64,000 nt of DNA from an uncultured Clostridia bacterium (GTDB lineage: Bacteria > Bacillota > Clostridia > UBA1381), in assembly GCA_947626075.1 (NCBI GenBank), contig CANQQW010000001.1, positions 14,213 through 78,212 of the forward strand, given 5' to 3'. Shown here in pieces: positions 3,001 to 22,532 of this stretch. The notes below the pieces were generated by a model. That model was not told the origin of the DNA. It saw nothing but the letters and a program-made list of their open reading frames with translations, and did not search any database. The translations under genes were made by a program, and so were the position numbers. Numbering within the stretch: position 1 is the stretch's first letter; the number at the start of each line of letters is the position of its first letter.

Positions 3001-6000
3001 AGCCAAAACCGGTACTGACGTATAAGTTTTTTGAGAACGGTCCCGGTCAGCTTGTCGAAGGTGAGGACTATACTCTTTCATGGGAGTCGAACGTGAACGC
3101 GGGTACGGGAAAGGTAATTGTTCGCGGCATAAACCGGTTTTCAGGTGAGATGTCAATACCGTTCACTATCAATAAGCGCAGTATAACCGAAGCGAGAATT
3201 ACACAGATACCCGCACAAGACTATACGGGAAATCCCATTACGCCTAACCCGACCTTGACGTATAACGGACATAAGCTGTTACAGTCCGCTGATTATACGC
3301 TAAGCTATTCGGATAATACTACGGATATAGGTACGGTAACCATTACCATAACAGGTATCGGTAACTTCGAGGGCACAGTTAATACAACGTTTGAGATTGA
3401 ACCGTCAGGAATTGAAGGGGTAGCCGTACATCATATACCCGACCAAGAATATAACGGCAAGCCGCAAGAACCTGATTTGACAATCACGTACAAAGGACGA
3501 ACGCTCGAGGAAGATACCGACTATACGTTAGACTACTCGAATAACGTAGATGTGGGTACTGCCACTGTTACCATTACAGGCGTGGAAAACTCGGGCTTTA
3601 CAGGTACAACAGAAGCCAATTTTAATATTATCGCGTGTCCAATATCCCGTGCGGCGATAGAAACACCCGATAATGTGACGTATACAGGTTCTGAGATCAC
3701 ACCCGGTCTGACTATTACATACAACGGCATGACGCTTGAACAGAATGTGGACTACACATTGGGCTACAGCGAGAACGTAAATGCGGGTATGGCAGAGATT
3801 ATTGTGACCGGTATAGGTAACTATTCAGGTACACGCAGCACTAACTTCGGTATAGATCCGTGTGAGATTTCCAAAGCTGATATTTCGGAAATAGACGAGC
3901 AGATGTATACGGGTGAGGTAATCACACCCAAGCCGACGCTCTCGTTCAACGGTAAGACACTGGTACAGGGCGTAGACTATACGCTGTACTATTCCGAAAA
4001 CAGGGATATTGGTACGGCTACTATTACAATAACAGGTAACGGCAACTTTACCGGTGTGACAACTACCACGTTCCAAATCATAGCATCCGATATTAAGGAT
4101 GTCATAGTGCTTAACATACCCGACCAGCTATATACCGGTAAGCAGATAACGCCTGATCCGACAATTATGTTTAACGGGCGACTGCTGGCTAAAGACTACG
4201 ACTATACACTAAGTTATGAAAATAACGTGGACGTAGGCACGGCTACGGTAACGATAACAAGTGTAGAGGAATCGGACTTTGTGGGTACGGCTACCAAGAC
4301 GTTTGAAATTGTTCCAAGACCTATCGCTGACGCGGCTATTACTCTGCCGAAGCATGAGACATATACGGGCGATCCGATAACACCACACCTAACAATTGAG
4401 TTTGAGGGTATGAGCCTTGTAGTAGGCAAGGACTACAATATATCATATGATAGTAACACCAATGTCGGAATGGCAGAAATAGTAATTGAGGGTATCAATA
4501 ATTTTGAAGGTTCACGGCATACGGTGTTTACAATTGTACCCCGCAACATCTTTGAAGCGGACATCACGGAAATACCGCCGCAGCACTATACGGGCGATGC
4601 TCTGACACCTGAACCGACTATCTCGTATCGCGGTAAGCCACTTACAAAGAACGTCGATTATGTATTGATGTACGCGAACAACGTAAGGGAAGGTACGGCT
4701 ACGGTAACGGTAAGGGGTGTTGGTAACTTTACAGACATAGCAACAACGACATTCAAAATCGAGTCGTCAGGTGTTGACGGCGTAGTAGTTTTAGGTATAC
4801 CCGACCAAGTATATACGGGTAAGCCCATAACTCCTGAACCGACTATCTCGTATCGCGGTAAAACACTCACGAAGGACGAAGATTACACCTTGGACTATGA
4901 GAATAACATCAATGTAGGACGTGCAACGGTTAAAATCACGGGCATAGCAGGTTCGGGATTTGACGGAACGACAACTGTTTCGTTCAATATAACGCACAAA
5001 CCGATTGCTGACGCGGCAATTAAGCTGCCTGAGCACCATGTCTATACCGGTGAACCGATACAACCGGAAATGGAAGTCACGTTAGAGGATTTGACGCTTG
5101 TCAAGGACAAAGACTATACGGTAGACTATGATGATAATACGCGTGTTGGTACAGCCGAAGTGGTTATAACGGGCGTAGGCAACTTTGCCGGCACAAGACA
5201 TACGGTATTTGCTATCATGCCTTGCGATATAGAGGATACGGATATAGACGATATACCCGCACAGGACTATACAGGCTATCATATAACGCCTGATCCGCAT
5301 ATATCATATAACGGTCAGGATTTGATATTCGGACGCGATTATACGTTAAAGTATGAAGATAACCTTGAGGTAGGTACTGCTACCGTTACTATCGCCGGAA
5401 ACGGTAATTTTACGGGCACAGTGGACAAGACGTTTGAAATATCGGAAATGGATATTGATTATGTCGATATTGCGCCTATACCGTCACAAACATATACCGG
5501 TTATGAGATAACGCCCGAGATGTCAATCACGTTCCACGGCAGAACGCTTGTTAAGGGCTTGGACTATACGGTTGAGTTTGAGAATAACAAGGACGTAGGT
5601 ACGGCTACGGTAATAATTACAGGTATTCCCGAAGCGGGCGTTAAAGGAACAAAGGAAACAGAGTTTGACATAACTCCCGCACAAATAAGCTCTGCTAAGG
5701 TATCATCGGTACCGAAGCATGAAACATACACGGGCGATCCGTATACACCTGAACCGACGCTTGTGTTCAACGGTATAGAGCTTGTTAAAGATGTCGATTA
5801 CACGTTGGACTACTCGAATAACGTAGACGCGGGTGAGGTTGTAATCACCATTACCGGTATGGGTAATTTTGAGGGTACAATGACCGAAACGTTTGTTATA
5901 GAAGCTGTGCTTATAACCAACGTTGAAGTAACCGCTATCCCGGCAGAAACATATTCGGGTGAGGAAATAACCCCTGAACCGACAGTGACGTATGAAGGTA

Positions 6001-8165
6001 ATGAGCTTACAATGGGCGAAGATTATGTGCTGGAATACGATAATAACCTTAACGCGGGTACAGCTATGGTAATCATACGCGGTATAGGTAACTATACGGG
6101 CACAACCAACAGGGTATTCACGATCAATTCGCAGCTTATAAGCAACACGGATATGTCCATTGAGGACGTAGAATTTACAGGCTATCCTCAGGACGGACAT
6201 CTTGCACTGACATACGGTGACAATACACTTGTTAAAGACAAGGACTATACGGCATCGTTTATCAATAATATCAATGTAGGTACTGCTACCGCAATCATTA
6301 CCGGTGTAGGCAATTTTGCGGGTAATCTTACGTCCGGATTTGATATATTACAACGACTTATTACGTTGAAAAACATCAAAGCTGAACCTATACCCACACA
6401 GGCATATACCGGCTATGAAGTAACACCTAAACCTGTCATATGGTACGGTGATTTCCTGCTTGAGGAAGATAAGGACTATACGCTTGAATACCGTAATAAC
6501 GTTAATGTAGGCACAGCGAGTGTAGATGTGACGTTTATGGGTAACTATACGGGCAAAATAACCTTGGATTTTGAGATACAAAAGTATCGCGTAACGGCAT
6601 CGAATAATGGCGGCTACATTGACGGGGCAAAGACAGAGTATGTAGACGACAACAATATCAATGTTACGCTTCCTGACGGTGTGGTATTCGACTACGACGA
6701 CAGAGTACATGTGACCGTAACAGATATGGACGGCAACCCTGTAGAGGGCGTTACGGTCCATGTAACAGACAGTAACGGTACGGTAGAGCAAGACACTACA
6801 GATGAGCAAGGTGACGCTTCTGTGCCGCCGCAAAAGACCGATACGACCGATAAAAACGGTCAAGGTGAAATTATAATAACAGACGACGACGGCAACGTTA
6901 CGGGCAGGTATACGGTCACTGTGAGCGATGAGAGTGGTCCTGTAAAAGACGCATTTTTGTCATTAACAAACGACGGCAATTTAAGTGTTACAATGCCTGA
7001 CGGCAAGGTCGTAGGCGCGTCTAACAGAGTAACGGTCAGTGTTAAAGACGAGAATGGCGAGGGTGTAGCTGATTTGACAGTAACAGTATCGGATACAGCT
7101 GAAACACCGTCAACGTTCAGTGGTAAGACATCGAACACCGGTTCTGTGACCTTACCGCCTAAATCGTCAGTTTCAAGCGGCGGCGGTGGCGGTGGTTCAT
7201 CAGGTGGTGGCGGCGGTGGTGGTTCGTCAAGTGGCGTACTAACCCCGTCTGCAACAGTAACCGATGATACCAACCAAGAGTTGACCGTTGAAGAAGAGAA
7301 GTCAAAAACCGGCGATTATACCATTACTCTGCCGGAGTCTGAAAACCTTGAAGACGGCAAAGAATATACCGTTACATTGCCGGGCAAGAAAGAGGGCGTA
7401 AAGGTTACTCTAAAGGATAAGTTCGGTAATGAAGTATCAGGTATTACCGATAAAGGTGGAAAGGTTGTTCTTAAGTATAAGAAGACGGCAATAGAACCGA
7501 CAGAGCCGACAGACACGGTAGAGCACAGCGCATACATTTACGGCGATGATTACGGCTTATTCAGACCTGATAATATGATGACACGAGCTGAAGCGGCTAC
7601 TATATTTGCACAAAATATATCGCAGCGTCTTGACGAGGATATTTCCGATAACAATTCACAGTTTGCTGATGTTTTGCCGGGTACATGGTATAATAAATAT
7701 ATCGCATATCTCGAAGGTTATGACATCATAACAGGCTATGAAGACGGTTTATTCTATCCTGAAACACCTATTACGCGTACCGAGTTTGTAACCATGTGCA
7801 AGAAGTATTACGAGCTTTATGATACCGTTGAGGAATTTAACGAGAATATATTCCCCGACGTCCCCGATACACATTGGGGTGTTGCATACATAAAAGACTC
7901 CGTTGGTATGGGCTGGATAAGCGGTTATGAAGACGGCACGTTTAAGCCTGATAACTTTATCACGCGTTCAGAGGTAGTGGCTATCATTAATAGAGTACTC
8001 GGACGTTCCACTGACAGGGAGTATATAAACAGCAACATTGAAGCAGTGGCACAGTTCACTGATGTACCGACTACACATTGGGCATACTACGACATACTCG
8101 AAGCTTGTAATTCACATACCTGCTCCAATGAGTCAACCGGTGAGGTTTGGGTAAAGGTTCAATAA
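3..8165 (+). CDS. Giant surface protein (5'-partial): BspA-type LRR region, 17 Ig-like repeats, further beta-sandwich repeats, Gly/Ser linker, three C-terminal SLH domains
   Basis: Frame is open from base 3 (VPNTDES...) to the ATG at 114, so the true start is upstream. LRR_5-like IGxxAFxxCxxL repeats, YTG..ITP..DYT..Y.NN..VGTATVTITG.GNF repeats, and SLH motifs (FRPDNMMTRAEAA, FYPETPITRTEF, FKPDNFITRSEV). Confidence 0.9.
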   Translation, partial: VPNTDESDGVISSDAPISFFSANDFFDISLLSTGVNSMMIDKDGDGEDDSTVFYGDCTGDGSSYVEGAHYQDGDKVEWWLDSDGTLTFKGTGCIKDYGKQKNARPPWYGGIQIPYDVKNIIIGEGIRYIGSDAFSGLDKIETVTYPETSLIDIGSSAFENSSIREFNIPDTVKYIQMYAFRDCTKLLYEDYDVPEENRKTLHLPNSLVSLSSGAFQGSYCIHKVEFPEGLTKIPDSCFKGCSALGKQYDEEAYVFPDTITTIGSSAFANTGFKNVIIPANTTLGNAIFMGSALKKVEFENGVTEVPNSMFKECDALENVKMVDSIESIGSEAFRACTKLPYVEIPQNVTEIGNDAFSYCYNLEELNIPAKVELIKGNPAVFSFRLKNINVDPENDYYESNNGVLFTKGLEDLIYYPIWGKEETEYTIPNGTKNILQSAFAKNTLTGSEKYETPPETHLTTVHFPETVKTIGKEAFYGLESLTTVTLNNGLESIGEKAFSYTGLESITIPETVNKMLSGTFLNCKCLTTAELSSNLTTISQDTFSGCVHLGEVIVPEGITYIGSYAFASCEELSSIALPSTLETIDVCGFMNCKNLKTIELPKSLKEISVKGLPFGTLETITVNEENTTYRVDNDVALINNDTKTLVGYLTQNKQTIYTVPEDVEVIGKYAFYNASYLQSINLSNITAIERSAFEGASKIHFTLPEGLKSIGAWAFYNIGVVSNLKIPASVISIGQKAFAQSSSGKGVSGVLTFESQEEPNDSRKLVFEINQFSGTDESISKAFDKSSLRSIDFGNRIIVFNGYEFSNSPLLMSVDMSKASVATIAVSTFDGCPYLNDVQFSPSIQNICNRAFAGSTQLAQITIPWSIRGISTNAFLGTRLQKIVIRRFKLPYIVENGDSNTEGAEVIYANAYYPQTAYNYTGAMPKPTVTLDGESLIENVDYTIEYGELDEENQMEATIRGVPGRVGGYAVATFKLIPDSITRATYDPLPDVTYTGDPFKPKPVLTYKFFENGPGQLVEGEDYTLSWESNVNAGTGKVIVRGINRFSGEMSIPFTINKRSITEARITQIPAQDYTGNPITPNPTLTYNGHKLLQSADYTLSYSDNTTDIGTVTITITGIGNFEGTVNTTFEIEPSGIEGVAVHHIPDQEYNGKPQEPDLTITYKGRTLEEDTDYTLDYSNNVDVGTATVTITGVENSGFTGTTEANFNIIACPISRAAIETPDNVTYTGSEITPGLTITYNGMTLEQNVDYTLGYSENVNAGMAEIIVTGIGNYSGTRSTNFGIDPCEISKADISEIDEQMYTGEVITPKPTLSFNGKTLVQGVDYTLYYSENRDIGTATITITGNGNFTGVTTTTFQIIASDIKDVIVLNIPDQLYTGKQITPDPTIMFNGRLLAKDYDYTLSYENNVDVGTATVTITSVEESDFVGTATKTFEIVPRPIADAAITLPKHETYTGDPITPHLTIEFEGMSLVVGKDYNISYDSNTNVGMAEIVIEGINNFEGSRHTVFTIVPRNIFEADITEIPPQHYTGDALTPEPTISYRGKPLTKNVDYVLMYANNVREGTATVTVRGVGNFTDIATTTFKIESSGVDGVVVLGIPDQVYTGKPITPEPTISYRGKTLTKDEDYTLDYENNINVGRATVKITGIAGSGFDGTTTVSFNITHKPIADAAIKLPEHHVYTGEPIQPEMEVTLEDLTLVKDKDYTVDYDDNTRVGTAEVVITGVGNFAGTRHTVFAIMPCDIEDTDIDDIPAQDYTGYHITPDPHISYNGQDLIFGRDYTLKYEDNLEVGTATVTIAGNGNFTGTVDKTFEISEMDIDYVDIAPIPSQTYTGYEITPEMSITFHGRTLVKGLDYTVEFENNKDVGTATVIITGIPEAGVKGTKETEFDITPAQISSAKVSSVPKHETYTGDPYTPEPTLVFNGIELVKDVDYTLDYSNNVDAGEVVITITGMGNFEGTMTETFVIEAVLITNVEVTAIPAETYSGEEITPEPTVTYEGNELTMGEDYVLEYDNNLNAGTAMVIIRGIGNYTGTTNRVFTINSQLISNTDMSIEDVEFTGYPQDGHLALTYGDNTLVKDKDYTASFINNINVGTATAIITGVGNFAGNLTSGFDILQRLITLKNIKAEPIPTQAYTGYEVTPKPVIWYGDFLLEEDKDYTLEYRNNVNVGTASVDVTFMGNYTGKITLDFEIQKYRVTASNNGGYIDGAKTEYVDDNNINVTLPDGVVFDYDDRVHVTVTDMDGNPVEGVTVHVTDSNGTVEQDTTDEQGDASVPPQKTDTTDKNGQGEIIITDDDGNVTGRYTVTVSDESGPVKDAFLSLTNDGNLSVTMPDGKVVGASNRVTVSVKDENGEGVADLTVTVSDTAETPSTFSGKTSNTGSVTLPPKSSVSSGGGGGGSSGGGGGGGSSSGVLTPSATVTDDTNQELTVEEEKSKTGDYTITLPESENLEDGKEYTVTLPGKKEGVKVTLKDKFGNEVSGITDKGGKVVLKYKKTAIEPTEPTDTVEHSAYIYGDDYGLFRPDNMMTRAEAATIFAQNISQRLDEDISDNNSQFADVLPGTWYNKYIAYLEGYDIITGYEDGLFYPETPITRTEFVTMCKKYYELYDTVEEFNENIFPDVPDTHWGVAYIKDSVGMGWISGYEDGTFKPDNFITRSEVVAIINRVLGRSTDREYINSNIEAVAQFTDVPTTHWAYYDILEACNSHTCSNESTGEVWVKVQ
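2750..6590 (+). repeat. 17 tandem ~80-aa Ig-like coding repeats
   Basis: Counted 17 Y[TNS]G/FTG-initiated units in the translation; boundaries approximate. Confidence 0.85.
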
Positions 8166-8238: not shown

Positions 8239-8267
8239 TTGACATGAAATTTCCACTATGATATAAT
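8239..8267 (+). promoter_or_regulatory. Consensus sigma-A promoter with extended -10
   Basis: TTGACA (8239-8244), 17 bp, TG-n-TATAAT (8262-8267). Confidence 0.85.
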
Positions 8268-8273
8268 ACAGAT

Positions 8274-8502
8274 AAGTTATATGAAGTATTATGGAACGGA
8301 ACCACTATGTGATTTTGTTTCAACACTATTAAAAGTGACCGTTGGCGGGATTTTTGTACCATTTTTTATGAAGTAGTATAAAAATCCCTTTTGTTTATTT
8401 ACATCATTAGCAGAACGCAAAAAGACAAGTCGGTTACTTAAAAAATCAAGTTAAAAAAGAGAACGAAGATAATTATATTTTCGTTCTCTTTTTCTTTTTT
8501 TT
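8274..8502 (+). ncRNA. Candidate structured sRNA or attenuator leader
   Basis: Lies between a consensus promoter and a strong terminator. Nested helices AAGTGACCG/CGGTTACTT (8333-8341/8431-8439) and GGGATTTTTGTAC/GTATAAAAATCCC (8347-8359/8376-8388). No known family recognised. Confidence 0.4.
8454..8502. terminator. Strong, possibly bidirectional intrinsic terminator
   Basis: 14-bp stem AAAAAGAGAACGAA / TTCGTTCTCTTTTT with long T tail. Confidence 0.85.
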
Positions 8503-8586
8503 CTCAAGATGCTTATGTAATCATGTGTTCTCAAGGAGTTGTGTGCATATTTCCTTCTTGTTCCCGTAAAGAAAGGAATAAAGATT

Positions 8587-9105
8587 ATGGAAAAAACTCA
8601 AGAAGATTTAATATTGGACAATATAGATACCGCAAAGAATCTGGTACAAAGTATTTCCCAACGCCTACATTTAAGACCATCCACGCGCGAAGAATGTGAA
8701 GATATAGCCTTTTTTCAATTATGTAAGTGTGCATCCCAGTACGATGCAACGAAAGGCAAGTTTAAGACATATTTTGAAAAAAACGCAAGGTTCAAGATTT
8801 GGACATCCCTAAAAAAGGAGTTTCTGCATGGTATGTCGTATAGCAATAATTTAAATCTGCAAAACACACGGCAAATAGATTTAGATTTGAGCGAAATAGA
8901 AGCTACGAACGATGACATTACCGAAGCTGAAATAATCTTAGACATTAATAATATCCTTACGAAAAAACAACGCGATGCGTTTACTTATCTCCGTCAGGGA
9001 TTTGACAATCATAAAATTGCAGCAATTATAGGGATTTCAGATCGTGCTGCTCGCGCGTTAGTGCAACGTGTCAAAGATAAAATTTATATTGTTATCACTT
9101 CTTAA
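8587..9105 (+). CDS. Sigma-70-family (ECF/group 4-like) sigma factor
   Basis: Region-2-like EDIAFFQLCKCASQYDATKGKFKTY and region-4 HTH LTKKQRDAFTYLRQGFDNHKIAAIIGIS. ATG 8587 chosen from RBS AAAGGA. Confidence 0.7.
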   Translation: MEKTQEDLILDNIDTAKNLVQSISQRLHLRPSTREECEDIAFFQLCKCASQYDATKGKFKTYFEKNARFKIWTSLKKEFLHGMSYSNNLNLQNTRQIDLDLSEIEATNDDITEAEIILDINNILTKKQRDAFTYLRQGFDNHKIAAIIGISDRAARALVQRVKDKIYIVITS

Positions 9106-9298: not shown

Positions 9299-10756
9299 AT
9301 GGCAAAATATGATGACACTATGCCAATCGGCAAAAAAAGAAATCAGTCAATGCAGAACAACACAGAAGATGTAAAAGAGCCAATGTCACCGGAATCGCAT
9401 GACAGCGAACAGAAATTGCCTAATATGCCTGAACAGAAAGAACACGAAAAGCCTGAAACGACCGAAAATAACTCGGATGAACCGACAGAAAAGAAGTTGT
9501 CCGAAGAAGAAATATTAAGTTTACCGATACGTAAGGTAAAGAGCGGCGATCGTGTATTTTACGGACATTATGACGAGGAACGGCTAATAGTTTATCTAAT
9601 TGACGAGAACGGTAAACTGACGGGCAAATGCGGAAGATTGCATAAACCTTTACCGCCCAAACACCCACAGCCTGTTTCAGAGGATAGTTCTGATACGAAA
9701 CAAAACAATGCGCTGATGAATATTAAGGAGAGAAAGTTTAAAATCGGCTTCAATAAGGTTGATGATGAAAGAACATCCTCTTCGCCGCTTAAACGGTATA
9801 AAAAGGTTATTATTTTCGCTGCTGTTGCCTTAGCGGCAATTATTGGTATAGCGTCTTATCGAAGCGTCATGAACTCTGTATTTTCACCTAACGGGGACGA
9901 TAGCCCCGAACCGCAAGAAACGATTGCCCCGTCAGACGGGGAAATGTTGGTTATAGAAATAAACACTGACGTGATTGCAGGAGACGAAATAACAGAGGAT
10001 ATGCTGCAACCGGCTACCATAGACGGGCAAATGTATAACCAGATAGCAATTAATGGTAACGACTTGTATCGTTGGGATCAGCGCGAAAATATTATAGGTA
10101 TGTATGCCACGGAATATATCTCGCAAGGTCATTATATTACGACCAATTCGCTTTCAAAGATTGTTCGAGATGCTGAAAATCCGTGGATAATAAACAGCTC
10201 ACAGACAGCGTATGCGGATATACCTATTCAGTCTACAGAACTTGACGCATCAAGCATATTGATAGGAGACAAGCTTAAACTGGATTTTGAGGTCCAAGTA
10301 AGCGAGCAGGGCGTAAATAATACAGACGATACGGACGTTTCATCAGGGCAGAAAACTGTAACTATCAATTCGTATTCTATCAATAATGCCGTTATAGCGG
10401 ATATGTTCACAGCAAGCGACAAGAGTATATTCAATATATATACTGCGTTGTTATCTGTACCGGAAGGTAATCAGGAGTATTATCTAAAGAATATGTGCAA
10501 TAAAAATCCCAATTACTTAGACGGCATAAAACCTGTTAAGATACGTGTTTATTTTGATAAACAGTATGCGGATGCACTTTCGACTGCAATAGCAAGTCAG
10601 GAGAACATTCAAGTTACTTTGGGTGATGGCTCGGATATATCAACAACAGAGAAGAAACAGTTCTACGACGGGGAACGGGCATTACAAACAAGTTTTTCCA
10701 ATCTTGCAGCGGATAGCGACAGTATCAGTGTAGTGAAAGGGGACGATGAAAAATGA
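9299..10756 (+). CDS. Membrane-anchored SAF-domain (CpaB/RcpC-like) protein
   Basis: Charged low-complexity N-terminus, one TM (VIIFAAVALAAIIGIASY), SAF-like segment LVIEINTDVIAGDEITEDML...IIGMYATEYISQGHYIT. Confidence 0.6.
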   Translation: MAKYDDTMPIGKKRNQSMQNNTEDVKEPMSPESHDSEQKLPNMPEQKEHEKPETTENNSDEPTEKKLSEEEILSLPIRKVKSGDRVFYGHYDEERLIVYLIDENGKLTGKCGRLHKPLPPKHPQPVSEDSSDTKQNNALMNIKERKFKIGFNKVDDERTSSSPLKRYKKVIIFAAVALAAIIGIASYRSVMNSVFSPNGDDSPEPQETIAPSDGEMLVIEINTDVIAGDEITEDMLQPATIDGQMYNQIAINGNDLYRWDQRENIIGMYATEYISQGHYITTNSLSKIVRDAENPWIINSSQTAYADIPIQSTELDASSILIGDKLKLDFEVQVSEQGVNNTDDTDVSSGQKTVTINSYSINNAVIADMFTASDKSIFNIYTALLSVPEGNQEYYLKNMCNKNPNYLDGIKPVKIRVYFDKQYADALSTAIASQENIQVTLGDGSDISTTEKKQFYDGERALQTSFSNLAADSDSISVVKGDDEK

Positions 10757-11187
10757 TGTTAAATATATCAGAAAAGCTAAAAAAAATATGGCAACAGTTA
10801 AAAGAAACACAAGTTCCACCTGCATTAAGGACTATGCAAATCAAACGGTCACTGTTTGCAATAATGGTATTTGCTGTAACGATACTGTCAGCGATACTGA
10901 CGAAGAATGTAGGATTTTTGGTCGGCGCGATTATAGGTTTGTACTTGCTGTATTTAGTCGTTGCGATTAAGTACGACTATGCAAACGGGAAAATAGCCGA
11001 GTATACATTAACTTGTTTGTACATAAAAACGCAACCAAACCGATTAGCGATCGTATTCGCCGATGATGAAGATAACAGAGACGTGTTTTTCACGTTAAAC
11101 AAGAAAGATAATTTTATTGAAGATATAAAATACACAATCTACTGTAAGAATGAAAGCAAGGTTATTATTGCGTATGAGCAATCATGA
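10753..11187 (+). CDS. Hypothetical membrane protein (2 TM)
   Basis: ATGA overlap with the upstream gene; two hydrophobic segments. Confidence 0.75.
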   Translation: MMLNISEKLKKIWQQLKETQVPPALRTMQIKRSLFAIMVFAVTILSAILTKNVGFLVGAIIGLYLLYLVVAIKYDYANGKIAEYTLTCLYIKTQPNRLAIVFADDEDNRDVFFTLNKKDNFIEDIKYTIYCKNESKVIIAYEQS

Positions 11188-11192
11188 TAAGG

Positions 11193-11228
11193 AGTCGCTG
11201 CAATTTTAGTAGATTGCAACGACTTTTT
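11193..11228 (+). terminator. Intrinsic terminator
   Basis: AGTCG-C-TGCAAT ... ATTGCA-A-CGACT followed by T run. Confidence 0.7.
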
Positions 11229-11366
11229 TACATATTAAGCAAGCGAGAAAGGCAATATGGAAGAAATTAAAAAAATTTATAACCAATATACCGTTTTCGT
11301 GATTTTGAGATATGTAATAAATGAGGGGCAAAGAAAGAAAACTTTTTGAAAGTAGGTGGTTCATTA

Positions 11367-11546
11367 TCTCGTCGCTCTTACGTCAACAGGGCAGAAAAAA
11401 GAAGACAAAGCACGTCGCCGGTCTTTTAAAGGGAGTCGTAATATAAAAGCTGATAGGTATTTTTTTCGAGTGATTTTCTCACTTGTTCCTTTCTTCTTAT
11501 CAGCATAAAAGAACGGTAGGGCTCCCTTCAAAAGGCGGGCGACAGA
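11367..11546 (+). ncRNA. Candidate ~180-nt structured RNA upstream of the S1-like gene
   Basis: Five nested helices, including GTCGCTC/GGGCGAC, AAGGGAG/CTCCCTT and GCTGATAG/TTATCAGC. No known family recognised; strand assumed from gene orientation. Confidence 0.4.
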
Positions 11547-11588
11547 AAAATAAATTGTATACAAGGCGTAAATAAAGGAGTGATTATA

Positions 11589-12764
11589 ATGCCGAGAGCG
11601 AAGAAAAACACTGTTGTTGAAGAAACAGTAAAGGATAACACAATTCAGGAAGAAGTAACACAGGAAGACCGCGAGCAAGAGGAAATCCTTGAACAAGCCG
11701 AAACGGAACATTCAAAGGATAAAGCGGCTTCTAAGCCTAAGACGAGGAAGAAAACAAAAATTATGGAAGATGACGTTTCCCAAGCCCCTGCACGGACGCG
11801 TAAAGACGTTATTAACGAAATGGTTACAAACGAAAGAACGCGAGCGGCAAGAAACGATAAGCGTGAGACTACGCTGATGAGTTGGGAACAGTTACGCGGC
11901 GCACACAAAGACGGCAGAATTGTAACAGGAAGTATATTCTCAATTGAGACACTGGACAACAAGCACGTCGTTGCTGTGGTTGATATGACAGGGTTCAGGG
12001 TCATTATCCCTATCGAGGAGATGTACAAGAATCCACCCTTGGACTACTCGACTGTAGTCAATGAAGCACAGCGCATACACCGTGAACGTCAAATGCTGTC
12101 CAAACTGTTAGGTGGCGAGATACAGTTTATTATAACCAACATTGACGGCTCACCATCAGACAATGAAGACGGATACCTGATTGTAGGTTCGCGTCGTCAG
12201 GCACTGGCACGTATAGAGGAACGCAATTACATACGTCATAGCCGTAACGGTATGCCCGCTATAACTGAGGGTAGTGTTGCTGAAGCTACGGTTGTATCAG
12301 TAGGTCAGCATGCCGTATTTGCAAATGTAGGCGGCGTAGACACTTCAATTTCCACATATCAGCTAACATATAGATATGTAGACAATGCCACAAATATGTA
12401 CACGCTTGGGGACAAATTCAATGTTGTCGTTAAGAGTATTGAGTTTGACGAGGACGGCAGCGTTAAAAATCTTGTCGTATCGGGCAAGGAAGCTGAGATT
12501 GAAGAATATCAGTCCCGCATTGATAAGATTAAGCCTAACACACTGACATTGGGTGTTATTACGTCTGTGAGAGCGTCAAAGAAGACACCCGGCAAGACAA
12601 TAATAACGCTGTTTATCGACGCATACAAGATGCCGGCTATGGCATCCTATGTCAAGATAGACACTATGGCAGAACCGCCCAAAACAGGCGACAGGGTTGT
12701 ATTCTCGACCTACATGGTAACGGATAGGGGATTCGTGATGGGACAGATCTTGCGTAAGGCATAA
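11589..12764 (+). CDS. Multi-S1 (OB-fold) RNA-binding protein resembling ribosomal protein S1 repeats
   Basis: S1-like units such as EGSVAEATVVSVGQHAVFANVGGVDTSISTYQLTYRYVDNATNMYTLGDKFNVVVKSIE; RBS AAGGAG before ATG 11589. Confidence 0.75.
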   Translation: MPRAKKNTVVEETVKDNTIQEEVTQEDREQEEILEQAETEHSKDKAASKPKTRKKTKIMEDDVSQAPARTRKDVINEMVTNERTRAARNDKRETTLMSWEQLRGAHKDGRIVTGSIFSIETLDNKHVVAVVDMTGFRVIIPIEEMYKNPPLDYSTVVNEAQRIHRERQMLSKLLGGEIQFIITNIDGSPSDNEDGYLIVGSRRQALARIEERNYIRHSRNGMPAITEGSVAEATVVSVGQHAVFANVGGVDTSISTYQLTYRYVDNATNMYTLGDKFNVVVKSIEFDEDGSVKNLVVSGKEAEIEEYQSRIDKIKPNTLTLGVITSVRASKKTPGKTIITLFIDAYKMPAMASYVKIDTMAEPPKTGDRVVFSTYMVTDRGFVMGQILRKA

Positions 12765-12798: not shown

Positions 12799-13671
12799 AT
12801 GATGGCAAAGAATGAGGGTGTGGACATATATGTTATCCCCGAGAACTTTATCGAAGGTGGAAGAATATTAAATGGTATGTTCAAAACACGGAATTTCGTT
12901 GAAGCTGTCGCGTTAGCATTAGCTGTAGGTATTCCGCTGTGGTTCATACCGTACCCTTCGGTTGCCATGAAAATGAGTGTCCTAATATCCGTTGTATTGC
13001 CTGTTTTCATAATGGGTGTCATCGGCATAAACGATAGCTCGTTGTTGGAGTTTCTGCAACAGTTCTTAAAGTGGCGAAAGAACAAGCGGATAATGATATA
13101 CAACACAAACACGCGCTCACGAGATGTAAGACCGGTTGAGGTTGTGCTATCACAGGAGCTGCCTAAAGATAAAATCGTAAAAACTATTGATACATGGCGT
13201 GAAAACAAGCGTCATAAGTCAACCGGCGAGACATTTATCGAGGGCAGAGACTTTGTATTTGACGAAGAAGTCAACACGTCATATACCGCCGCTGAAAACA
13301 AGCTCTTGTCACAGGACGATACGGACGAAACAGCAGAGAAGAAACCTAAGAAAGAGCGCAAACATAAGGGTAAAAAGGCAAAGGACGGCGAAAACACCGA
13401 AACCGCTGAAGAAACCGTTAGCACATCCGATACGGAAGAAGTTGATAATACCGAAGCAGAAACAGCGCAGGAAGCCGATACAGAGCCTACAGAAACCGAA
13501 AACGAGCCGCATGAGGTAAGTGATAGGGCAGAAGAAAACAGTGCGCAAGAAGGTAAAAGACCCGCCAAAAATGATGTACAAAAGCAAGAGGATGAGTTTG
13601 ACAAGTTTATCGACGTGGAAGCTGTGACGGACGAAACCGATGATGTGTTCGATATTATAACAGGGGAGTGA
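12799..13671 (+). CDS. prgI: PrgI-family (VirB3-like) T4SS membrane protein with long acidic tail
   Basis: YVIPENFIEGGRILNG..TRNFVEA motif, two TMs, EFL..FLKWRK; located immediately before VirB4. Confidence 0.7.
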   Translation: MMAKNEGVDIYVIPENFIEGGRILNGMFKTRNFVEAVALALAVGIPLWFIPYPSVAMKMSVLISVVLPVFIMGVIGINDSSLLEFLQQFLKWRKNKRIMIYNTNTRSRDVRPVEVVLSQELPKDKIVKTIDTWRENKRHKSTGETFIEGRDFVFDEEVNTSYTAAENKLLSQDDTDETAEKKPKKERKHKGKKAKDGENTETAEETVSTSDTEEVDNTEAETAQEADTEPTETENEPHEVSDRAEENSAQEGKRPAKNDVQKQEDEFDKFIDVEAVTDETDDVFDIITGE

Positions 13672-13677
13672 TAGAGA

Positions 13678-16203
13678 ATGGCAAAAGAACAAAAAGCGGC
13701 TAAAAAAGCCGGTCAAACCAAGAAAAAGCAAAAAAGCTTGATGAAAATCCAAAGCACACAAGCATTTCTCCCTATTCGCGATATATCTGACGGAATTATT
13801 ATAACGACCGACAGGAGGTTTATAAAAATCCTCGAAGTAACGCCTATAAATTTTTTGCTCAGGTCGCCATCTGAACAGAGCGCAATAGTACAGTCATTTG
13901 CCGGCGTTTTAAAGCAAATGCCGATCAAAGTACAGTTCAAGATTATATCTCGTCGAGCGGATGTGTCGAATTATATTGATAAGATATACACCAATATGGA
14001 GACAGAGGAAAACGATAAGTGTTTGCAGCTACAGGAAGAACAGATAAATCTTATTTCCACTGTTGGCGAGAGAGAGGGCATATCACGCCGGTTCTATATT
14101 ATTTTTGAATATGAAGAACCGACAGGCTTGCAGAAGTCCGCGACGTTCTCGGAGATCAAGTCGTCGTTAAACACTTATGCTATGCGTATTCAGAATATGC
14201 TCTTGCCTTGCGGAAACGAGGTACATCCACTTACAGACGATAAGGATATATTGAATGTATTCTATCAAATCCTGTGCAAAAACGAGAGCGATAATAAGGC
14301 GTTCGATATACGAATGTATGAGACCATTTCACGATACATAGCAGATACGAATTACAATCCCGAAAAGGACTCATACATACCGCTAACCGACTTTATATCG
14401 CCTAAGACAATAGATACGCGGCAATCGCCTAAATATATTGTTGTTGATGGGACATATTACGCATTTGCATACATTCCATCCAAGTCGTATAACACTACTT
14501 CAATAGCGGGTTGGCTGTCGTATCTTATAAACCTTGGCGAGGGCATAGATGTTGACCTATATATAAAGAAGGAAAACATAGCTTCCACACAACAGAAATT
14601 GGCATATGCACTGAGATTTAACAAGGTAAAGGCAAGGAGTATGGATGATACATCTGCCGACTATGACGATGTACGAGATGCCATATCTTCCGGGTACTAC
14701 CTGCGACAAGGCATATCAAACGGTGAGGACTTTTGCTATATGTCCATTTTACTCACGGTTATGGCAGATAGCTATGAGGAGCTTGAGTGGAAAATGCGCG
14801 AGGTGAAAGCATACCTAATTACACAGGATATACGCGTAAAATCGTGCCTGTTCCGTCAAGAGGAAGCGTTTTTAATGGCACTGCCGTTATGCTATATGGA
14901 CAATTTTATCTATCGCCGAGCGCGCAGAAATGTTTTAACGCATGATTGCGCGTCTGCTTATCCGTTCATATCGTTCGAGATTACTGATGAGAACGGCATT
15001 ATGCTTGGGCTTAATAAGAACAACAATTCACTGGTGTTCTTGGATCCGTTCGATACGAAAAAATATAAAAATGCCAATATGGCTATTATAGGAACGCCGG
15101 GTGCGGGAAAGACATATACACTACAATGTTTGGCTATGCGTATGCGTCAGCAAAAGAAGCAGGTATTCATTATCGCCCCTGATAAGGGATATGAGTTTAT
15201 ACGAGCTTGTGAGGAAATAGGCGGTGAGTATATCAATATCAGTGCCGGTTCAAAGCAGAATATAAACATCATGGAAATACGCAAAATGGATACTGAAACG
15301 TCGGAAATACTGGACGGTAGAAACGCTGTCAGCGCGTCTATTATGTCGCGCAAAATTCAACAGCTTCATATTTTTTTCACACTGTTAATACCTGATATAT
15401 CTTATGAGGAAAAGCAGTTGTTGGACGAAGCATTGGTTAATACATATGCAAAGTTTGGCATAACAGCTGATAATAAATCTCTTATCAATACTGACGATCC
15501 GACGAGGTATAAGCCAATGCCGATATTGGGTGACTTGCATAAAGAATTAAAGAAAATGGGTGAAAAAACAAACCGCCTATACAGCATATTGCTACGATAT
15601 ATTACAGGTTCGGCATCGTCTTTCAACGCTCAAACAAACGTCAACTTGGATAATAAATATATTATCTTGGACGTATCGGAGCTGACAAAAGAAATGATAC
15701 CTATGGGAATGTTTATTGTTCTTGACTATGTATGGGACAAAATCAAAGAGGATAGAACAAAGCGTAAAGTCATTTTTATAGACGAGGTATGGGAGTTAAT
15801 CGGTGCAAAAGCGTCTGAGGAAACGGCAGAATTTGTTCTTGAAATCTTTAAACTGATTCGTAGCTATGGCGGTAGCGCGGTGGCTTCAACGCAGGACCTA
15901 AACGACTTTTTCTCCCGTGACGACGGTCGATACGGTAAGGGTGTTGTAAACAGTGCAAAGATAAAGATTATCATGCAGCTTGAACAGCAAGAGGCAGAGT
16001 TCGTACAGGATGCGTTTAACCTGTCCGACACAGAACGACAGCAAGTAGCGCAGTTCCAAAAGGGTGAGGGATTGCTGTGTGCTAACAATAATCATGTGAT
16101 GATAAAGGTAACAGCATCCAAGACAGAGGACGAATTGATTACAACCGACTCAAATCAATTGCGCGAAATCGCGACACACAAACGCGAGGAAAGATATATT
16201 TAA
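13678..16203 (+). CDS. virB4: VirB4-like conjugative T4SS ATPase
   Basis: Walker A GTPGAGKT, Walker B VIFIDEVW, IRSYGG..VASTQ motif, 841 aa. Confidence 0.9.
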   Translation: MAKEQKAAKKAGQTKKKQKSLMKIQSTQAFLPIRDISDGIIITTDRRFIKILEVTPINFLLRSPSEQSAIVQSFAGVLKQMPIKVQFKIISRRADVSNYIDKIYTNMETEENDKCLQLQEEQINLISTVGEREGISRRFYIIFEYEEPTGLQKSATFSEIKSSLNTYAMRIQNMLLPCGNEVHPLTDDKDILNVFYQILCKNESDNKAFDIRMYETISRYIADTNYNPEKDSYIPLTDFISPKTIDTRQSPKYIVVDGTYYAFAYIPSKSYNTTSIAGWLSYLINLGEGIDVDLYIKKENIASTQQKLAYALRFNKVKARSMDDTSADYDDVRDAISSGYYLRQGISNGEDFCYMSILLTVMADSYEELEWKMREVKAYLITQDIRVKSCLFRQEEAFLMALPLCYMDNFIYRRARRNVLTHDCASAYPFISFEITDENGIMLGLNKNNNSLVFLDPFDTKKYKNANMAIIGTPGAGKTYTLQCLAMRMRQQKKQVFIIAPDKGYEFIRACEEIGGEYINISAGSKQNINIMEIRKMDTETSEILDGRNAVSASIMSRKIQQLHIFFTLLIPDISYEEKQLLDEALVNTYAKFGITADNKSLINTDDPTRYKPMPILGDLHKELKKMGEKTNRLYSILLRYITGSASSFNAQTNVNLDNKYIILDVSELTKEMIPMGMFIVLDYVWDKIKEDRTKRKVIFIDEVWELIGAKASEETAEFVLEIFKLIRSYGGSAVASTQDLNDFFSRDDGRYGKGVVNSAKIKIIMQLEQQEAEFVQDAFNLSDTERQQVAQFQKGEGLLCANNNHVMIKVTASKTEDELITTDSNQLREIATHKREERYI

Positions 16204-16378: not shown

Positions 16379-16936
16379 ATGATTTCAACGATTTTAGTAA
16401 ATAACATTCTTGAGTTCGTGAACCGTATTGGGGTGGTAGAGGAAAATCAGCTCTTCACTATGTTCGGTATGACGCACGACATAGATACCATTGACTGGTG
16501 TTTACGACATCTTAGCCGAACCAATCAAATCAATATGGACAGGGAACGAGGAATAATTACACGTCGGCAATGGGTGAACGAGTCTGATTTCGGGCAGAAG
16601 CTAATGACGACGGCAACATGGGTTTTAGCTCACATGGGTGAAACGCGCGTACGGGACTTTTTTCCCGTTTCTTATCCGTCCCAACTACTGATTATAGGTG
16701 AGGACAACAACGTCTATGATGTGACGGTGTATACATGGCAAACACTCGACGCAATAAATATGTCGATTATCCCGAAGCGTAATCAGATCGTCCCGCCGGG
16801 TGAGGTTGATATGACTATACATATCGCGCTGCTTCCCGATGAGGAAATGGCAAGTAAGGTAAAGGCGTTCGGGTTCGATAATTACTGTATTCTCGACGAG
16901 AATGGTAAGCCTAAATACTACGAGTGGGAGGACTAA
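16379..16936 (+). CDS. Hypothetical protein, possible N-terminal winged helix
   Basis: RBS AGAAAGGA; ILEFVNRIGVVEENQL...CLRHLSRTNQI looks wHTH-like. Family not established. Confidence 0.65.
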   Translation: MISTILVNNILEFVNRIGVVEENQLFTMFGMTHDIDTIDWCLRHLSRTNQINMDRERGIITRRQWVNESDFGQKLMTTATWVLAHMGETRVRDFFPVSYPSQLLIIGEDNNVYDVTVYTWQTLDAINMSIIPKRNQIVPPGEVDMTIHIALLPDEEMASKVKAFGFDNYCILDENGKPKYYEWED

Positions 16937-16939
16937 ACC

Positions 16940-17668
16940 ATGACAAAGGATTTTGTGCAGAATATGGCTGATGTGGATATAATCGACATGGTTAATACCT
17001 ATAAGGCAACCGGCAAGACAGCTGAACAGCTACAGAACGAAATAAACAAGTCATTGCCCACGCTTGAATCATTTGCGAGCACATACAGATTTATGCTGCC
17101 AAAGGAACGGCATAAGACCGCCAAAGATATACAGAAGCTTATAACTCGCGATTATATACGGTTTCTGCTGCTGTATCAGCAGTTATATAACGATTACAGC
17201 AACATATTCTACGCTGTGTACGATGCACATTTGAAGAATACGGTAACAGTTGAGTGCGACAGTTCGTTCATATCGGCATTTGCCACAGATGATATGCTCG
17301 CAGTGAAACTACCACATCTGCCGGTCAAAGCTCGTATTCGCTCCTCGGTGTTCCAAGACCTGCTACGTGATAAGCTTTCGGTCGTCAATGTGCCGCTTAT
17401 CCGTGACAAGCTGATACACATCGTACATATATATCCCACAGCGATGAGTGAGCTTAGAGTCCCCGACAATGACAATTATGACATAAAACGATTGATTGAT
17501 GTCATATCCGACTATATGGGCTATGGGGATAGCGGAGTACACTGTTCGCTGTTCATGGAGACGCTTCTGACAGACGATGTACCCGAAGGTAGCTATGTTA
17601 TAGTTACACCTAAGAGTAGTGGAGTAAAATCCGATTCCGAAACCTTAGAAATTCTTCAAAATTTCTGA
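16940..17668 (+). CDS. RusA-like nuclease/resolvase candidate
   Basis: C-terminal PDNDNYDIKRLIDVI...GD resembles the RusA DxDNxxKxxxD...DD catalytic motif. Confidence 0.5.
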   Translation: MTKDFVQNMADVDIIDMVNTYKATGKTAEQLQNEINKSLPTLESFASTYRFMLPKERHKTAKDIQKLITRDYIRFLLLYQQLYNDYSNIFYAVYDAHLKNTVTVECDSSFISAFATDDMLAVKLPHLPVKARIRSSVFQDLLRDKLSVVNVPLIRDKLIHIVHIYPTAMSELRVPDNDNYDIKRLIDVISDYMGYGDSGVHCSLFMETLLTDDVPEGSYVIVTPKSSGVKSDSETLEILQNF

Positions 17669-17688
17669 TTTTCAACCTTTAAAAACTC

Positions 17689-17726
17689 GTGAAATTTATG
17701 TAATTTTTCGACTACATAAATTTCAC
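17689..17726. other. 14-bp perfect inverted repeat (oriT/operator candidate)
   Basis: GTGAAATTTATGTA-N10-TACATAAATTTCAC, no T tail, upstream of the Rep/relaxase candidate. Confidence 0.5.
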
Positions 17727-17856
17727 AAGGTTCGGGAGCGGATTTATATAGGTTTTTACTAAGGATTTTTAAGGCATAAGACCGAAAATCTATTGAAGAT
17801 AGATTAGCTTGATAGATTTTAGATCATACAACGGCAAAAAGAAAGGGGCAAAAGGA

Positions 17857-19062
17857 ATGTCTAAATCACACATAAAGTACAACATTTTAATGTGTCTTAT
17901 GGACAACGGTATAGCACTTTCTCAAACCATAAAAGCGGTATTGGGTGGCACTTCACAGGTCGGTAATTACATATCCATATTAACACGTCAAGGGTATATA
18001 AAACGTAAAGACTTACCTGTACGGTCAAACAACCGTAAATATACCATTCAATACATATCAATCACACGTCAAGGGGTTCAGTGGCTTGTAGATAACTATC
18101 CAAACGATAGCTACATTCCATTCTTACCAAATCCTGTGCCGAGATTTCGCATAACGGACATAACCAATAACGATACAATACAGAAATATCTTAAAAGCAT
18201 ATCAGCGTCATTGATATTCAAGTCAATCGGCATAGAAACGGCAGACCAAGACAATAAAAAGGCAACAGACACACTGTACTTTATAGACATGATAGAAAAG
18301 GCGAAAAGACAGTACAGTATAGCCCAAGATAAGCCCATAAACAGTACCCAAATAGCAAATGCACTCAACACAGTGACAAGATATTATCATTCAAGAACTA
18401 TACACGACAACTTCACGCTCAATCAAGACGAGGTAGCACAGTACAAATTCTCAACACACATCGGTCTATTGCTTAACTGTTCAATACCTTATATCATCTA
18501 CGCGTCAAATCCGAACGGGACAGTATTCCAAGCAAAAGCAGTAGAGAGAGCACAGTTATCAGTCAGTACCATGCTGCGTATGCAAGGTATAGGCGTAAGC
18601 AACGAACTAAGCAACGGTATAGTATTTTGCAAGAACGGCAGAGAGTTTGGGAAAGTATTTAATAGTCTTAAAGACCGTATGGGGCAAGACCAAGAACAGT
18701 TTATGGATAGACGATTAGCGCGGATATTTAAGCACCTGTACGCTGTACCTATCCAGTCCGCAAACCTACCAATACTTAAAGAGATACTTACCTACGAGGA
18801 TAACTATCGTGTAAAGATACGGGACAAACTACTTAGCATTGACAGTTCATTTCAGAGCACATTCTCACCTATTACGGAGCTTGACTATGACGGTACACCT
18901 GCGTATATAGGTACTGACATGGACTTGTGCCGTATCCAGTATTTGTATCGCAACCTAAGCTATCAAAAATCTGTTAATGTGGTTATCATCTGCTACCCGC
19001 ACCAACGGGACTATTACGAGCGTGTCATGCCGAAGGACAGAGTGAGTTATTACCTCATATAA
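17857..19062 (+). CDS. Winged-helix protein, replication-relaxation (Rep/relaxase) candidate
   Basis: N-terminal ILMCL...YISILTRQGYIKR...YISITRQGVQWL pattern typical of wHTH/Replic_Relax-like proteins. ATG 17857 after AAAGGA; no canonical MOB HUH motif seen. Confidence 0.45.
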   Translation: MSKSHIKYNILMCLMDNGIALSQTIKAVLGGTSQVGNYISILTRQGYIKRKDLPVRSNNRKYTIQYISITRQGVQWLVDNYPNDSYIPFLPNPVPRFRITDITNNDTIQKYLKSISASLIFKSIGIETADQDNKKATDTLYFIDMIEKAKRQYSIAQDKPINSTQIANALNTVTRYYHSRTIHDNFTLNQDEVAQYKFSTHIGLLLNCSIPYIIYASNPNGTVFQAKAVERAQLSVSTMLRMQGIGVSNELSNGIVFCKNGREFGKVFNSLKDRMGQDQEQFMDRRLARIFKHLYAVPIQSANLPILKEILTYEDNYRVKIRDKLLSIDSSFQSTFSPITELDYDGTPAYIGTDMDLCRIQYLYRNLSYQKSVNVVIICYPHQRDYYERVMPKDRVSYYLI

Positions 19063-20504: not shown

Positions 20505-20810
20505 ATGACTACGACACAAAAGCGTATATACTCGTCGTCCACGTTCAACCTTGACAATACATCTGTGATAGAGTCGATGGGTAGTTATGAGCGATTAGCG
20601 TATGCGATAATAATTCAGGCGGTAAAGGACTACCGTCGTGCGAAACGTACAGAGAATTTGGGCGTATTAAAGGAATGTGAGCGTTTTTTCGGTGGGAGCT
20701 GGTTTGAAGTCTTAACGGACATACCCGGCAAGCTCATAATCGAGAAATTACGTCAAGAGAACGTATCAAGGCGAAAGCGCAGGAAGAAAGCGGGTGTGCA
20801 AGGTGGATAA
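20505..20810 (+). CDS. Conserved phage/ICE hypothetical protein
   Basis: YERLAYAIIIQAVKDYRRA...ECERFFGGSWFEVLTD pattern common in clostridial mobile elements. Confidence 0.65.
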   Translation: MTTTQKRIYSSSTFNLDNTSVIESMGSYERLAYAIIIQAVKDYRRAKRTENLGVLKECERFFGGSWFEVLTDIPGKLIIEKLRQENVSRRKRRKKAGVQGG

Positions 20811-20982
20811 CGAGTATATGACACGCCAAGAAACAGCGGAATATTTAAAGATCAGCATACGCAGCGTGGACAGGCTAATACACAACAAGCATTTTGACGG
20901 TATACAGTACATTGGCAGAAATGTACGGGTGCATAAGCCCACGCTGGACAGATACCTTGAACAACGACGAGGAAGTAAGTAA
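20794..20982 (+). CDS. xis: Excisionase-like HTH protein
   Basis: YMTRQETAEYLKISIRSVDRLI...IGRNVRV (MerR/HTH_17 type) directly upstream of the integrase; the start may be 20803 or 20818. Confidence 0.75.
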   Translation: MCKVDNEYMTRQETAEYLKISIRSVDRLIHNKHFDGIQYIGRNVRVHKPTLDRYLEQRRGSK

Positions 20983-22504: not shown

Positions 22505-22532
22505 TAAAATGCTGAAAAAAGGAGTGATTGCC

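Follow-up and report, generated by a model that had tools for sequence, protein, structure and literature searches.

A bS1-derived protein family with three S1 domains linked to type IV secretion genes in conjugative elements of gut Clostridia

Small proteins with an oligonucleotide/oligosaccharide-binding (OB) fold take part in the conjugation of several Gram-positive elements. The usual gene order in integrative and conjugative elements (ICEs) of the ICEBs1/Tn916 type is helP-helP-conQ-nicK, HelP being an OB-fold protein (PMC3542172), and ICESt3 cannot transfer without OrfL and OrfM, relaxosome proteins that also have an OB fold (PMC12614216). HelP, Orf22/Orf23 (Tn916) and OrfL/OrfM are encoded beside coupling-protein and relaxase genes, and assist the helicase or the relaxase on the transferred strand (PMC3542172, PMC12614216). 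In the accessible part of a review of type IV secretion system (T4SS) components from December 2025, HelP and OrfL/OrfM were the only OB-fold auxiliaries found. Here, a 391-amino-acid (aa) protein with three S1 domains, derived from the ribosomal protein bS1 and called the S1-like protein below, was analysed. It is encoded on the forward strand at positions 11589-12764 of a 64,000-nucleotide stretch of DNA (the window) from an uncultured Clostridia bacterium (GenBank assembly GCA_947626075.1, contig CANQQW010000001.1).

The S1-like protein resembles HelP (ICEBs1), Orf22/Orf23 and OrfL/OrfM in that all are OB-fold proteins of Firmicute conjugative elements whose genes adjoin a coupling-protein gene. 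The described proteins are single OB folds of about 100-140 aa without an S1 signature, whereas the S1-like protein has three barrels in 391 aa; their genes lie upstream of the type IV coupling protein (T4CP) and relaxase genes, whereas S1-family genes come after the T4CP gene; and their T4SS is of the ICEBs1/Tn916 type, from which the T4SS family of the S1-like proteins differs. HelP-type homology was not found in Pfam and NCBIfam scans at E ≤ 0.1, which returned S1, rpsA and one weak unrelated NCBIfam match and included no pairwise comparison with HelP. By analogy, the likely role of the S1-like protein most resembles that of the OB-fold relaxosome/helicase accessories of other Gram-positive elements.

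Three further systems showed more limited similarities. PrgE (pCF10) likewise has an OB fold, comes from a Gram-positive T4SS operon and binds DNA (PMC11137577), but it is a single SSB-like OB fold that forms filaments and has neither S1 repeats nor a comparable long disordered arm; the SSB signature (PF00436) was not found in the window protein (Pfam, E ≤ 0.1). The bS1-like proteins of phages, which were the top BFVD matches (E 1.6e-12 to 4e-9), are likewise multi-S1 proteins of about 360-385 aa encoded by mobile elements, but are viral, have a presumed translational role and no T4SS linkage, and were only 11-16% identical in the structural alignment. The conAn1/conAn2 pair of pLS20-type plasmids also opens a Gram-positive conjugation operon with a protein and a structured RNA (PMC8191782). 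However, the conAn RNA element lies 3' of the conAn1 gene, the RNA structure in the window lies 5' of the S1-like gene, and most of the S1 family is leaderless. A ConAn-type antitermination family was rejected: the ConAn1 processivity domain PF17362 (as defined in PMC8191782) was not found in the window protein by Pfam, and the operon has no excess of terminators.

The S1-like gene was a conserved part of a T4SS gene cluster found in a large ICE/plasmid lineage of gut Clostridia. This conclusion is well supported, as is the content of the cluster: a PrgI/VirB3-like protein, a CD1110-related VirB4, DUF5697, DUF6100, a protein of about 400 aa without family match (protein X) and a CD1115-family coupling protein. 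All 14 loci from assemblies and plasmids, with 25-92% identity to the window protein, belonged to T4SS clusters. Eighty metagenome loci were also retained, many of them labelled human gut, and these represent one subfamily (56-75% identical to the metagenomic protein P0004) and are not independent. In this subfamily a T4CP gene lay directly upstream of the S1 gene on the same strand in 63 of the 63 loci with at least 1.5 kb of upstream sequence, and VirB4, DUF5697, DUF6100 and X stood in a fixed order in 36-37 of the 37 loci whose upstream sequence reached at least 7 kb. Linkage of the homologues to T4SS genes, on which the interpretation in the earlier note depended, was thus found wherever the flanks sufficed, down to about 25% identity. 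T4CP adjacency was seen in the relatives; the T4CP gene of the window element itself lies outside the region seen.

Two gene orders were distinguished, type A being a rotation of type B. Type A (S1, PrgI-like, VirB4, DUF5697, DUF6100, X) was found in the window, in L008 (92% identity), L001 (61%), L012 (42%) and L002-L005 (33%); in L002, T4CP and signal peptidase genes were located just upstream of S1. Type B (PrgI/VirB4, DUF5697, DUF6100, X, T4CP, S1, then sortase/SpaA or Tad-like pilus genes) was found in L006, L007 (the Vescimonas fastidiosa plasmid pMM35_02), L009, L011, L013 and L014. The pilus genes downstream of S1 at other family loci were either Tad-like (prepilin peptidase, RcpC) or of the sortase kind. 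In four loci with annotation (L006, L007, L009, L013), T4CP and S1 are about 16-26 nt apart, which suggests that both are co-translated from one mRNA. A further arrangement was seen in the plasmid pRSJ17_1 of Clostridium argentinense 89G (L095), with replication initiator A, an ATP-dependent helicase, a CD1115-family VirD4, a hypothetical gene and then a 276-aa S1 relative. Both pRSJ17_1 and pMM35_02, which come from cultured strains (89G and MM35), are classed as "non-mobilizable" by MOB-suite, despite a family member beside a CD1115-family T4CP gene, and current plasmid typing seems to miss this T4SS lineage.

Open reading frames joining PrgI or VirB4 to S1 were considered as Rosetta-stone fusions and rejected, their junctions cutting VirB4 and S1 domain 1 in mid-domain or reading into an intact S1; single S1::SpaA, S1::PEPCK and S1::DUF6017 cases were set aside as probably artefactual. 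In the metagenomic cases P0018, P0025, P0054, P0091 and P0100, PrgI/VirB4 fragments were joined to truncated or intact S1-family genes, and the junctions resembled virB4-S1 deletions, some at short shared peptides. Judged from their sequences, these frames would be either deletions in decaying elements or assembly chimeras.

The S1-like protein is, with good support, a cytoplasmic descendant of bS1 that corresponds to bS1 domains 2-4 and has lost the ribosome-anchoring domain 1. A profile of 53 family sequences was colinear with residues 146-339 of E. coli bS1 (E 2.8e-32); this range takes in domains 3 and 4 as well as the end of domain 2, and the "SRK + helix" linkers between the domains aligned too. 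Among PDB sequences, bS1 proteins were also the top phmmer matches. Both proteins have homologous tandem S1/OB domains and "SRR/SRK + helix" linkers, both are near-neutral to acidic overall, and bS1 was the best structural match. They differ in that bS1 has four to six domains, including the uS2-anchoring domain 1, and a housekeeping context, whereas the S1-like protein has three domains, carries a disordered charged arm in place of domain 1 and is encoded within a conjugative element beside T4SS genes. NCBIfam gave weak rpsA matches (best NF005208, 37.5 bits vs. a cut-off of 368; TIGR00717, 33 vs. 577). The S1-like protein is not ribosomal S1, because the rpsA cut-offs were missed by an order of magnitude, there are three repeats instead of four to six, and the domain-1 anchor is lacking. 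Against the family profile, bS1 proteins scored up to about 127 bits and the top 150 family representatives at least 215. A recently captured host rpsA was ruled out by this score gap and by the loss of domain 1; on the sequence comparisons, the family is an old, separate branch of bS1.

Structure prediction, which the earlier note had proposed, returned the OB/S1 fold. The AlphaFold2 (AF2) model made from the 53-sequence alignment (pLDDT 86.9, pTM 0.74) showed three five-stranded barrels at residues 111-201, 230-298 and 319-390 with helices between them, and an earlier model from six sequences (pLDDT 70) had an identical layout. The best Foldseek match in the PDB was bS1 (9gut_B, E 2e-14, 310 columns); bS1, PNPase S1, aIF2-alpha and NusA were matched with probabilities of 0.9-1.0. 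In the model the domains are OB barrels with a helix between strands 3 and 4, present in three copies. Pfam S1 (PF00575, gathering threshold 22 bits) matched residues 227-287 with 26.1 bits in the whole protein and 23.3 bits for domain 2 alone; it was the only Pfam match of the window protein at E ≤ 0.1 and was found in 50 of the 53 family members. Domain 2 was the sole repeat to pass Pfam S1 by itself, domains 1 and 3 falling below the threshold singly. Comparison of family sub-alignments with hhalign linked all three repeats (domains 2 and 3, E 3e-6; 1 and 2, E 4e-4; 1 and 3, E 4e-3), with the same topology. The initial description of two clear repeats and one divergent one was therefore right in the number of repeats and has to be amended in their grading: by sequence one is clear and two are divergent, by structure all three are clear.

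The N-terminal region (aa 1-68; 11589-11792, forward strand) is charged and disordered, as had been described from the sequence: 44% of its residues are charged (13 K+R, 17 D+E), none is aromatic, and the mean pLDDT per 10-residue block stayed below about 55 up to residue 60. It is the least conserved part of the protein and starts with a basic tip, MPRAKK. Among 121 full-length family members, 57 start with M-x(1,2)-[KR][KR] (MPRKK, MAKKK and similar), followed by an acidic, highly variable arm of 56-677 aa; the tip may act as a short motif for docking, or such a start may simply favour expression. A long helix follows (aa 71-108; 11799-11912), with a conserved W99/L102/A105 motif in the family alignment; its match to the linker between domains 1 and 2 of bS1 (bS1 83-111) was weak (1.7 bits) and suggestive at best.

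Domain 1 (aa 111-201; 11919-12191), identified by hhalign and AF2, is divergent and has a helix insert at 159-171; I140, P141 and S201 were nearly invariant, R202 and A205 invariant, and its SR(K/R) motif was invariant across the family. Domain 2 (aa 230-298; 12276-12482) gave the canonical Pfam match. The nucleic-acid contacts expected of an S1 domain are two aromatics on strands 2-3, a His after strand 3 and a basic residue on strand 5. At one of the domain-2 positions equivalent to the bS1 aromatic contacts, 31 of 53 members have H/K/Y, and at the other 38 of 53 have R/F/Y/W; K300 was K or R in 51 of 53. Domain 3 (aa 319-390; 12543-12758; hhalign, AF2), which aligned with bS1 domain 4 in the family profile, is basic, with an isoelectric point (pI) of about 10.

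The S1-like gene was compared with its 92%-identical copy in L008, the only relative at this level in a single-protein genome scan and located in a metagenome-assembled genome of a rabbit-gut Clostridia. The codon differences were 98 synonymous and 24 non-synonymous; the gene is therefore real and under purifying selection. A Shine-Dalgarno sequence, AAGGAG (11575-11580), was read 8 nt 5' of the ATG; a listed GTG start at 11580 is unlikely, since it falls within this sequence. The earlier note had placed the gene first in a prgI-virB4 operon, and the window agrees with this: upstream there is a terminator hairpin (11194-11229), and the genes that follow encode a PrgI/VirB3-like membrane protein with a long charged tail (12799-13671, forward strand), 34 nt from the S1-like stop, and, 6 nt further on, a VirB4-type conjugation ATPase with clear Pfam and NCBIfam matches (13678-16203). 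The PrgI-like protein scored 26.0 bits with Pfam PrgI, just below the cut-off of 27, and was 39-41% identical to the PrgI-like N-termini of other S1-family loci. At 290 aa it is longer than usual (about 117 aa), owing to a charged acidic tail of about 190 aa, probably disordered, which resembles the N-terminal arm of the S1-like protein in character. The trio that accompanies the S1 family (16379-19062) comes next on the same strand: DUF5697 (16379-16936), DUF6100 (16940-17668), both identified by Pfam, and the 417-aa protein X (17809-19062).

The intrinsic-terminator-like hairpin with a T-run at 11194-11229 (forward strand; arms 11194-11204/11213-11223) was read from the sequence, ends the transcription unit of the upstream gene 10753-11187, and was missing from the consensus scan list owing to one C-A mismatch; its stem is kept in L008 and L001 through compensatory and wobble changes. 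About 360 nt of leader separate it from the start codon, and a structured part (11362-11591, forward strand) was delimited by RNA folding and RNAalifold. In this structure a long stem (11414-11438 paired with 11519-11543) encloses a hairpin (11467-11485), and an outer helix (11362-11384 paired with 11565-11591) covers the Shine-Dalgarno sequence and the AUG. The hairpin is followed by a pyrimidine-rich tract and is attenuator-like. The fold of 11330-11592 reached -75.4 kcal/mol, with a z of -4.64 on the forward strand vs. -2.17 on the reverse strand; G-U pairs occur in the long stem, and on the opposite strand these would turn into A-C mismatches. RNAalifold on the window, L008 and L001 kept the long stem, with compensatory changes at 10 pairs among three sequences, two of them close. 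Rfam scans of the whole window and the leader found no known RNA family beside the S1-like gene. L002 and L012 had short leaders with a terminator and no obvious similar structure, and type-B S1 genes were leaderless. The leader, judged from its predicted folding, is plausibly a translational control element of the S1 gene in the lineage of the window, and is not a defining partner of the S1 family. The first position in the operon and the adjacent RNA, which had been presented together as one candidate system, thus hold for the lineage of the window and fail as family traits, the usual place of the gene being directly after the T4CP gene.

An exhaustive search with a hidden Markov model (HMM) gave 695 representatives of 50%-identity clusters at E ≤ 1e-30 and 2879 at E ≤ 1e-10, the looser counts necessarily including ordinary S1 proteins. 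Nearly all of the top 150 representatives were matched in a single stretch, and most had 300-540 aa. Going by these profile matches, the family comprises at least 150 clusters at 50% identity, and probably several hundred, mainly from gut metagenomes. Word-index searches badly under-reported it, returning 6 proteins from the single query and 35 from the family profile (20 of the family, most others bS1), and a pattern scan of metagenome contigs for one subfamily gave at least 549 confirmed relatives. RefSeq calls two annotated plasmid copies "S1 RNA-binding domain-containing protein". The family cluster members that were read carried no names, PHROGs gave zero matches for the S1-like protein, and a full-text search found no paper on DUF5697, DUF6100 or an S1 protein in a conjugation system; its description as undescribed was thus borne out as regards both a family name and a paper. 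Family members are also encoded in five unannotated GenBank records from human faeces labelled "Bacteriophage sp." (MT838991, MT836123, MT836282, MT839932 and MT835478), which may be fragments of conjugative elements misfiled as phage. The window protein founds a large unnamed family of bS1-derived proteins with three S1 domains, encoded among conjugation genes and outside the rpsA, SSB, HelP and ConAn1 families.

The S1-like protein is most likely a working part of the DNA-transfer process, because machinery genes stay conserved across deep divergence and regulators do not, and because the gene tracks the coupling-protein block. As to what it does there, we tentatively prefer, at somewhat less than an even chance, a single-stranded DNA (ssDNA) accessory factor that works with the coupling protein, by analogy with the accessories described above. 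The three OB barrels suggest single-stranded nucleic acid as the ligand, and the likeliest target would be the transferred DNA strand. The S1-like protein, produced alongside the coupling protein, would act at the relaxosome/coupling-protein step, either shielding the unwound strand and holding it in an extended state or helping the helicase or relaxase, with the disordered arm serving as a protein-docking or self-inhibiting tail. In the lineage of the window, the gene would have moved to the head of the PrgI-VirB4 operon, behind a leader able to mask the ribosome-binding site. Among the roles in the very broad list of the earlier note (RNA-binding regulator, translation helper or ssDNA chaperone), the ssDNA version is favoured by the family-wide adjacency to the coupling protein, and the translation helper is weakened by the absence of the domain-1 anchor and the distance from rpsA.

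Several points weigh against an ssDNA accessory factor. The classical ligand of S1 domains is RNA, and the fold gives no means of telling RNA binding from ssDNA binding. The aromatic contact positions are only partly kept in the family, and the equivalent of the His contact in domain 2 is Pro in 27 of 53 members, so that the mode of nucleic-acid binding, read from these positions, may differ from the textbook S1 mode. A canonical ssb gene is annotated separately on pMM35_02, and some elements of the family thus also carry an ordinary SSB. The metagenome loci that show T4CP adjacency come from a single subfamily, and the public runs that contained the window sequence were only DNA runs of rabbit gut metagenomes. 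In addition, PrgE, the OB-fold protein from a Gram-positive T4SS operon, was dispensable for conjugation according to the accessible part of its description (PMC11137577).

In the main rival explanation, the S1-like protein would serve the element as an RNA chaperone or as an RNA-binding regulator that acts after transcription. It would bind the mRNAs of the element, including its own leader, and determine, in the way bS1 acts on rpsA mRNA, how the long conjugation operon is translated, how stable its mRNA is or how far it is read through; functional counterparts would be plasmid RNA-binding regulators such as FinO, or conAn1/conAn2, in which a protein and an RNA together bring about antitermination. 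This role, which we consider somewhat unlikely, is strongest for the leader-bearing lineage of the window itself, where the gene is the first of the operon and the predicted fold of the leader is unusually stable on the forward strand only and pairs the Shine-Dalgarno sequence and AUG with an upstream segment, and it agrees with the RNA binding of S1 domains and of bS1 in general. Gram-positive plasmid conjugation operons are also known that begin with a leader and an antitermination protein and RNA (PMC8191782, PMC13401043). However, the leader is not obviously common to the other type-A loci, its covariation comes from three sequences, and the bulk of the family is leaderless, about 16-26 nt behind the T4CP gene. 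Conjugation regulators are usually lineage-specific, whereas the S1-like protein is conserved with the machinery in a family at least as deep as 20% identity; neither the ConAn1 domain PF17362 nor another regulator family was matched in Pfam and NCBIfam, and there is no excess of forward-strand terminators in the operon that would call for antitermination.

The variable aromatic contacts and the replacement of the canonical His by Pro could also mean that the barrels do not bind nucleic acid and form a protein-protein scaffold, a cytoplasmic adaptor between the coupling protein and the VirB3/VirB4 platform with the arm as a tether. The gene invariably has the T4CP block on one side and the PrgI/VirB4 or pilus block on the other, the family aligns from domain 2 of bS1 onward (domains 1-2 of bS1 bind proteins and have largely lost nucleic-acid binding), and the pTM suggests a rigid three-barrel body, not beads on a string. 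Nevertheless, the basic character of domain 3 and the helix (pI about 10), the invariant SRK motif and the aromatic/basic contact positions are more easily explained by nucleic-acid binding, and the PrgI::S1 and VirB4::S1 fusions that would have supported tethering are deletion or chimera junctions that truncate domains; such a scaffold is distinctly unlikely. More improbable still is a translation helper that supplements or replaces host bS1 on ribosomes in favour of the mRNAs of the element, a role proposed for the bS1 encoded by phages, or a VirE2-like substrate that is exported with the DNA and coats or protects it in the recipient. Phage "30S ribosomal protein S1" proteins of similar size were indeed the best viral structural matches, and the conserved basic tip on the disordered arm could be a docking or export signal, but bS1 domain 1 and the N-terminal uS2-binding segment are absent, the rpsA score is far below cut-offs of at least 368 bits, and the element genes inspected have strong Shine-Dalgarno sequences. 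To our knowledge, no export signal has been recognized for these conjugation systems.

The S1-like gene is located in the right-hand part of an integrative conjugative element, because the T4SS genes, an excisionase and an integrase follow it and then the host gene hrcA. After X, genes were found for an NA37 nucleoid-associated protein (19484-20482), an excisionase (20794-20982) and a tyrosine integrase (21107-22285), hrcA starting at 22509; G+C content rises from about 24 kb. Protein X (about 380-490 aa across the family) is encoded between DUF6100 and T4CP in type B, or ends the series after DUF6100 in type A. Searches of Pfam, NCBIfam and the PDB gave no significant match for X, even with a nine-sequence profile, and its identification as a relaxase failed in these databases. 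A 20-nt inverted repeat just upstream of X (17683-17732) was identical in L008, and a different inverted repeat was present there in L012. On these sequence features, X is a candidate for a new relaxase or DNA-processing protein, and the repeat for its operator or origin of transfer (oriT).

Other putative genes of the element lie upstream of the S1-like gene. A 2683-aa surface protein (114-8165), with seven BspA-type leucine-rich-repeat blocks and C-terminal SLH domains, probably serves, by its domain content, as an adhesin when mating cells make contact. The gene at 8539-9105, for a sigma-70-family (ECF-like) sigma factor, has a perfect TTGACA-17-TATAAT promoter with an extended -10 TG (8239-8267), and the 18-bp hairpin with a T-run between promoter and gene (8454-8493) may, from its position and form, be an attenuator controlling the sigma factor of the element. 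A 485-aa protein (9299-10756) is disordered at its N-terminus, contains a single membrane segment and shows a faint CpaB/SAF-like match (E 0.005), and its gene overlaps the start of that for a 144-aa membrane protein (10753-11187). Two host features were located on the reverse strand, a tRNA-Ser (GGA) and a small signal recognition particle RNA, at 37654-37744 and 45683-45781.

S1-family elements are abundant in human and animal gut Clostridia, and their transfer machinery is essentially unstudied. In the boldest form of the proposal, a ribosomal protein would have been exapted as a core cytoplasmic subunit of a very widespread, hitherto uncharacterised lineage of Clostridial conjugation machines, as a T-strand chaperone or a helicase-processivity partner of the coupling protein, would make up a DNA-processing module of a new kind with T4CP and protein X, which may itself be a new relaxase, and might even travel with the DNA into the recipient; we regard this as a long shot. 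The S1-like gene together with DUF5697, DUF6100 and X provides an annotation marker for this ICE/plasmid lineage. If the role preferred here is true, a conserved bS1-derived protein with three OB domains tied to the coupling protein would be a new type of accessory factor in Gram-positive conjugation, would extend the recent finding that some relaxosomes are built by OB-fold and not ribbon-helix-helix proteins, and would plainly illustrate the recruitment of a protein of translation by a mobile element.

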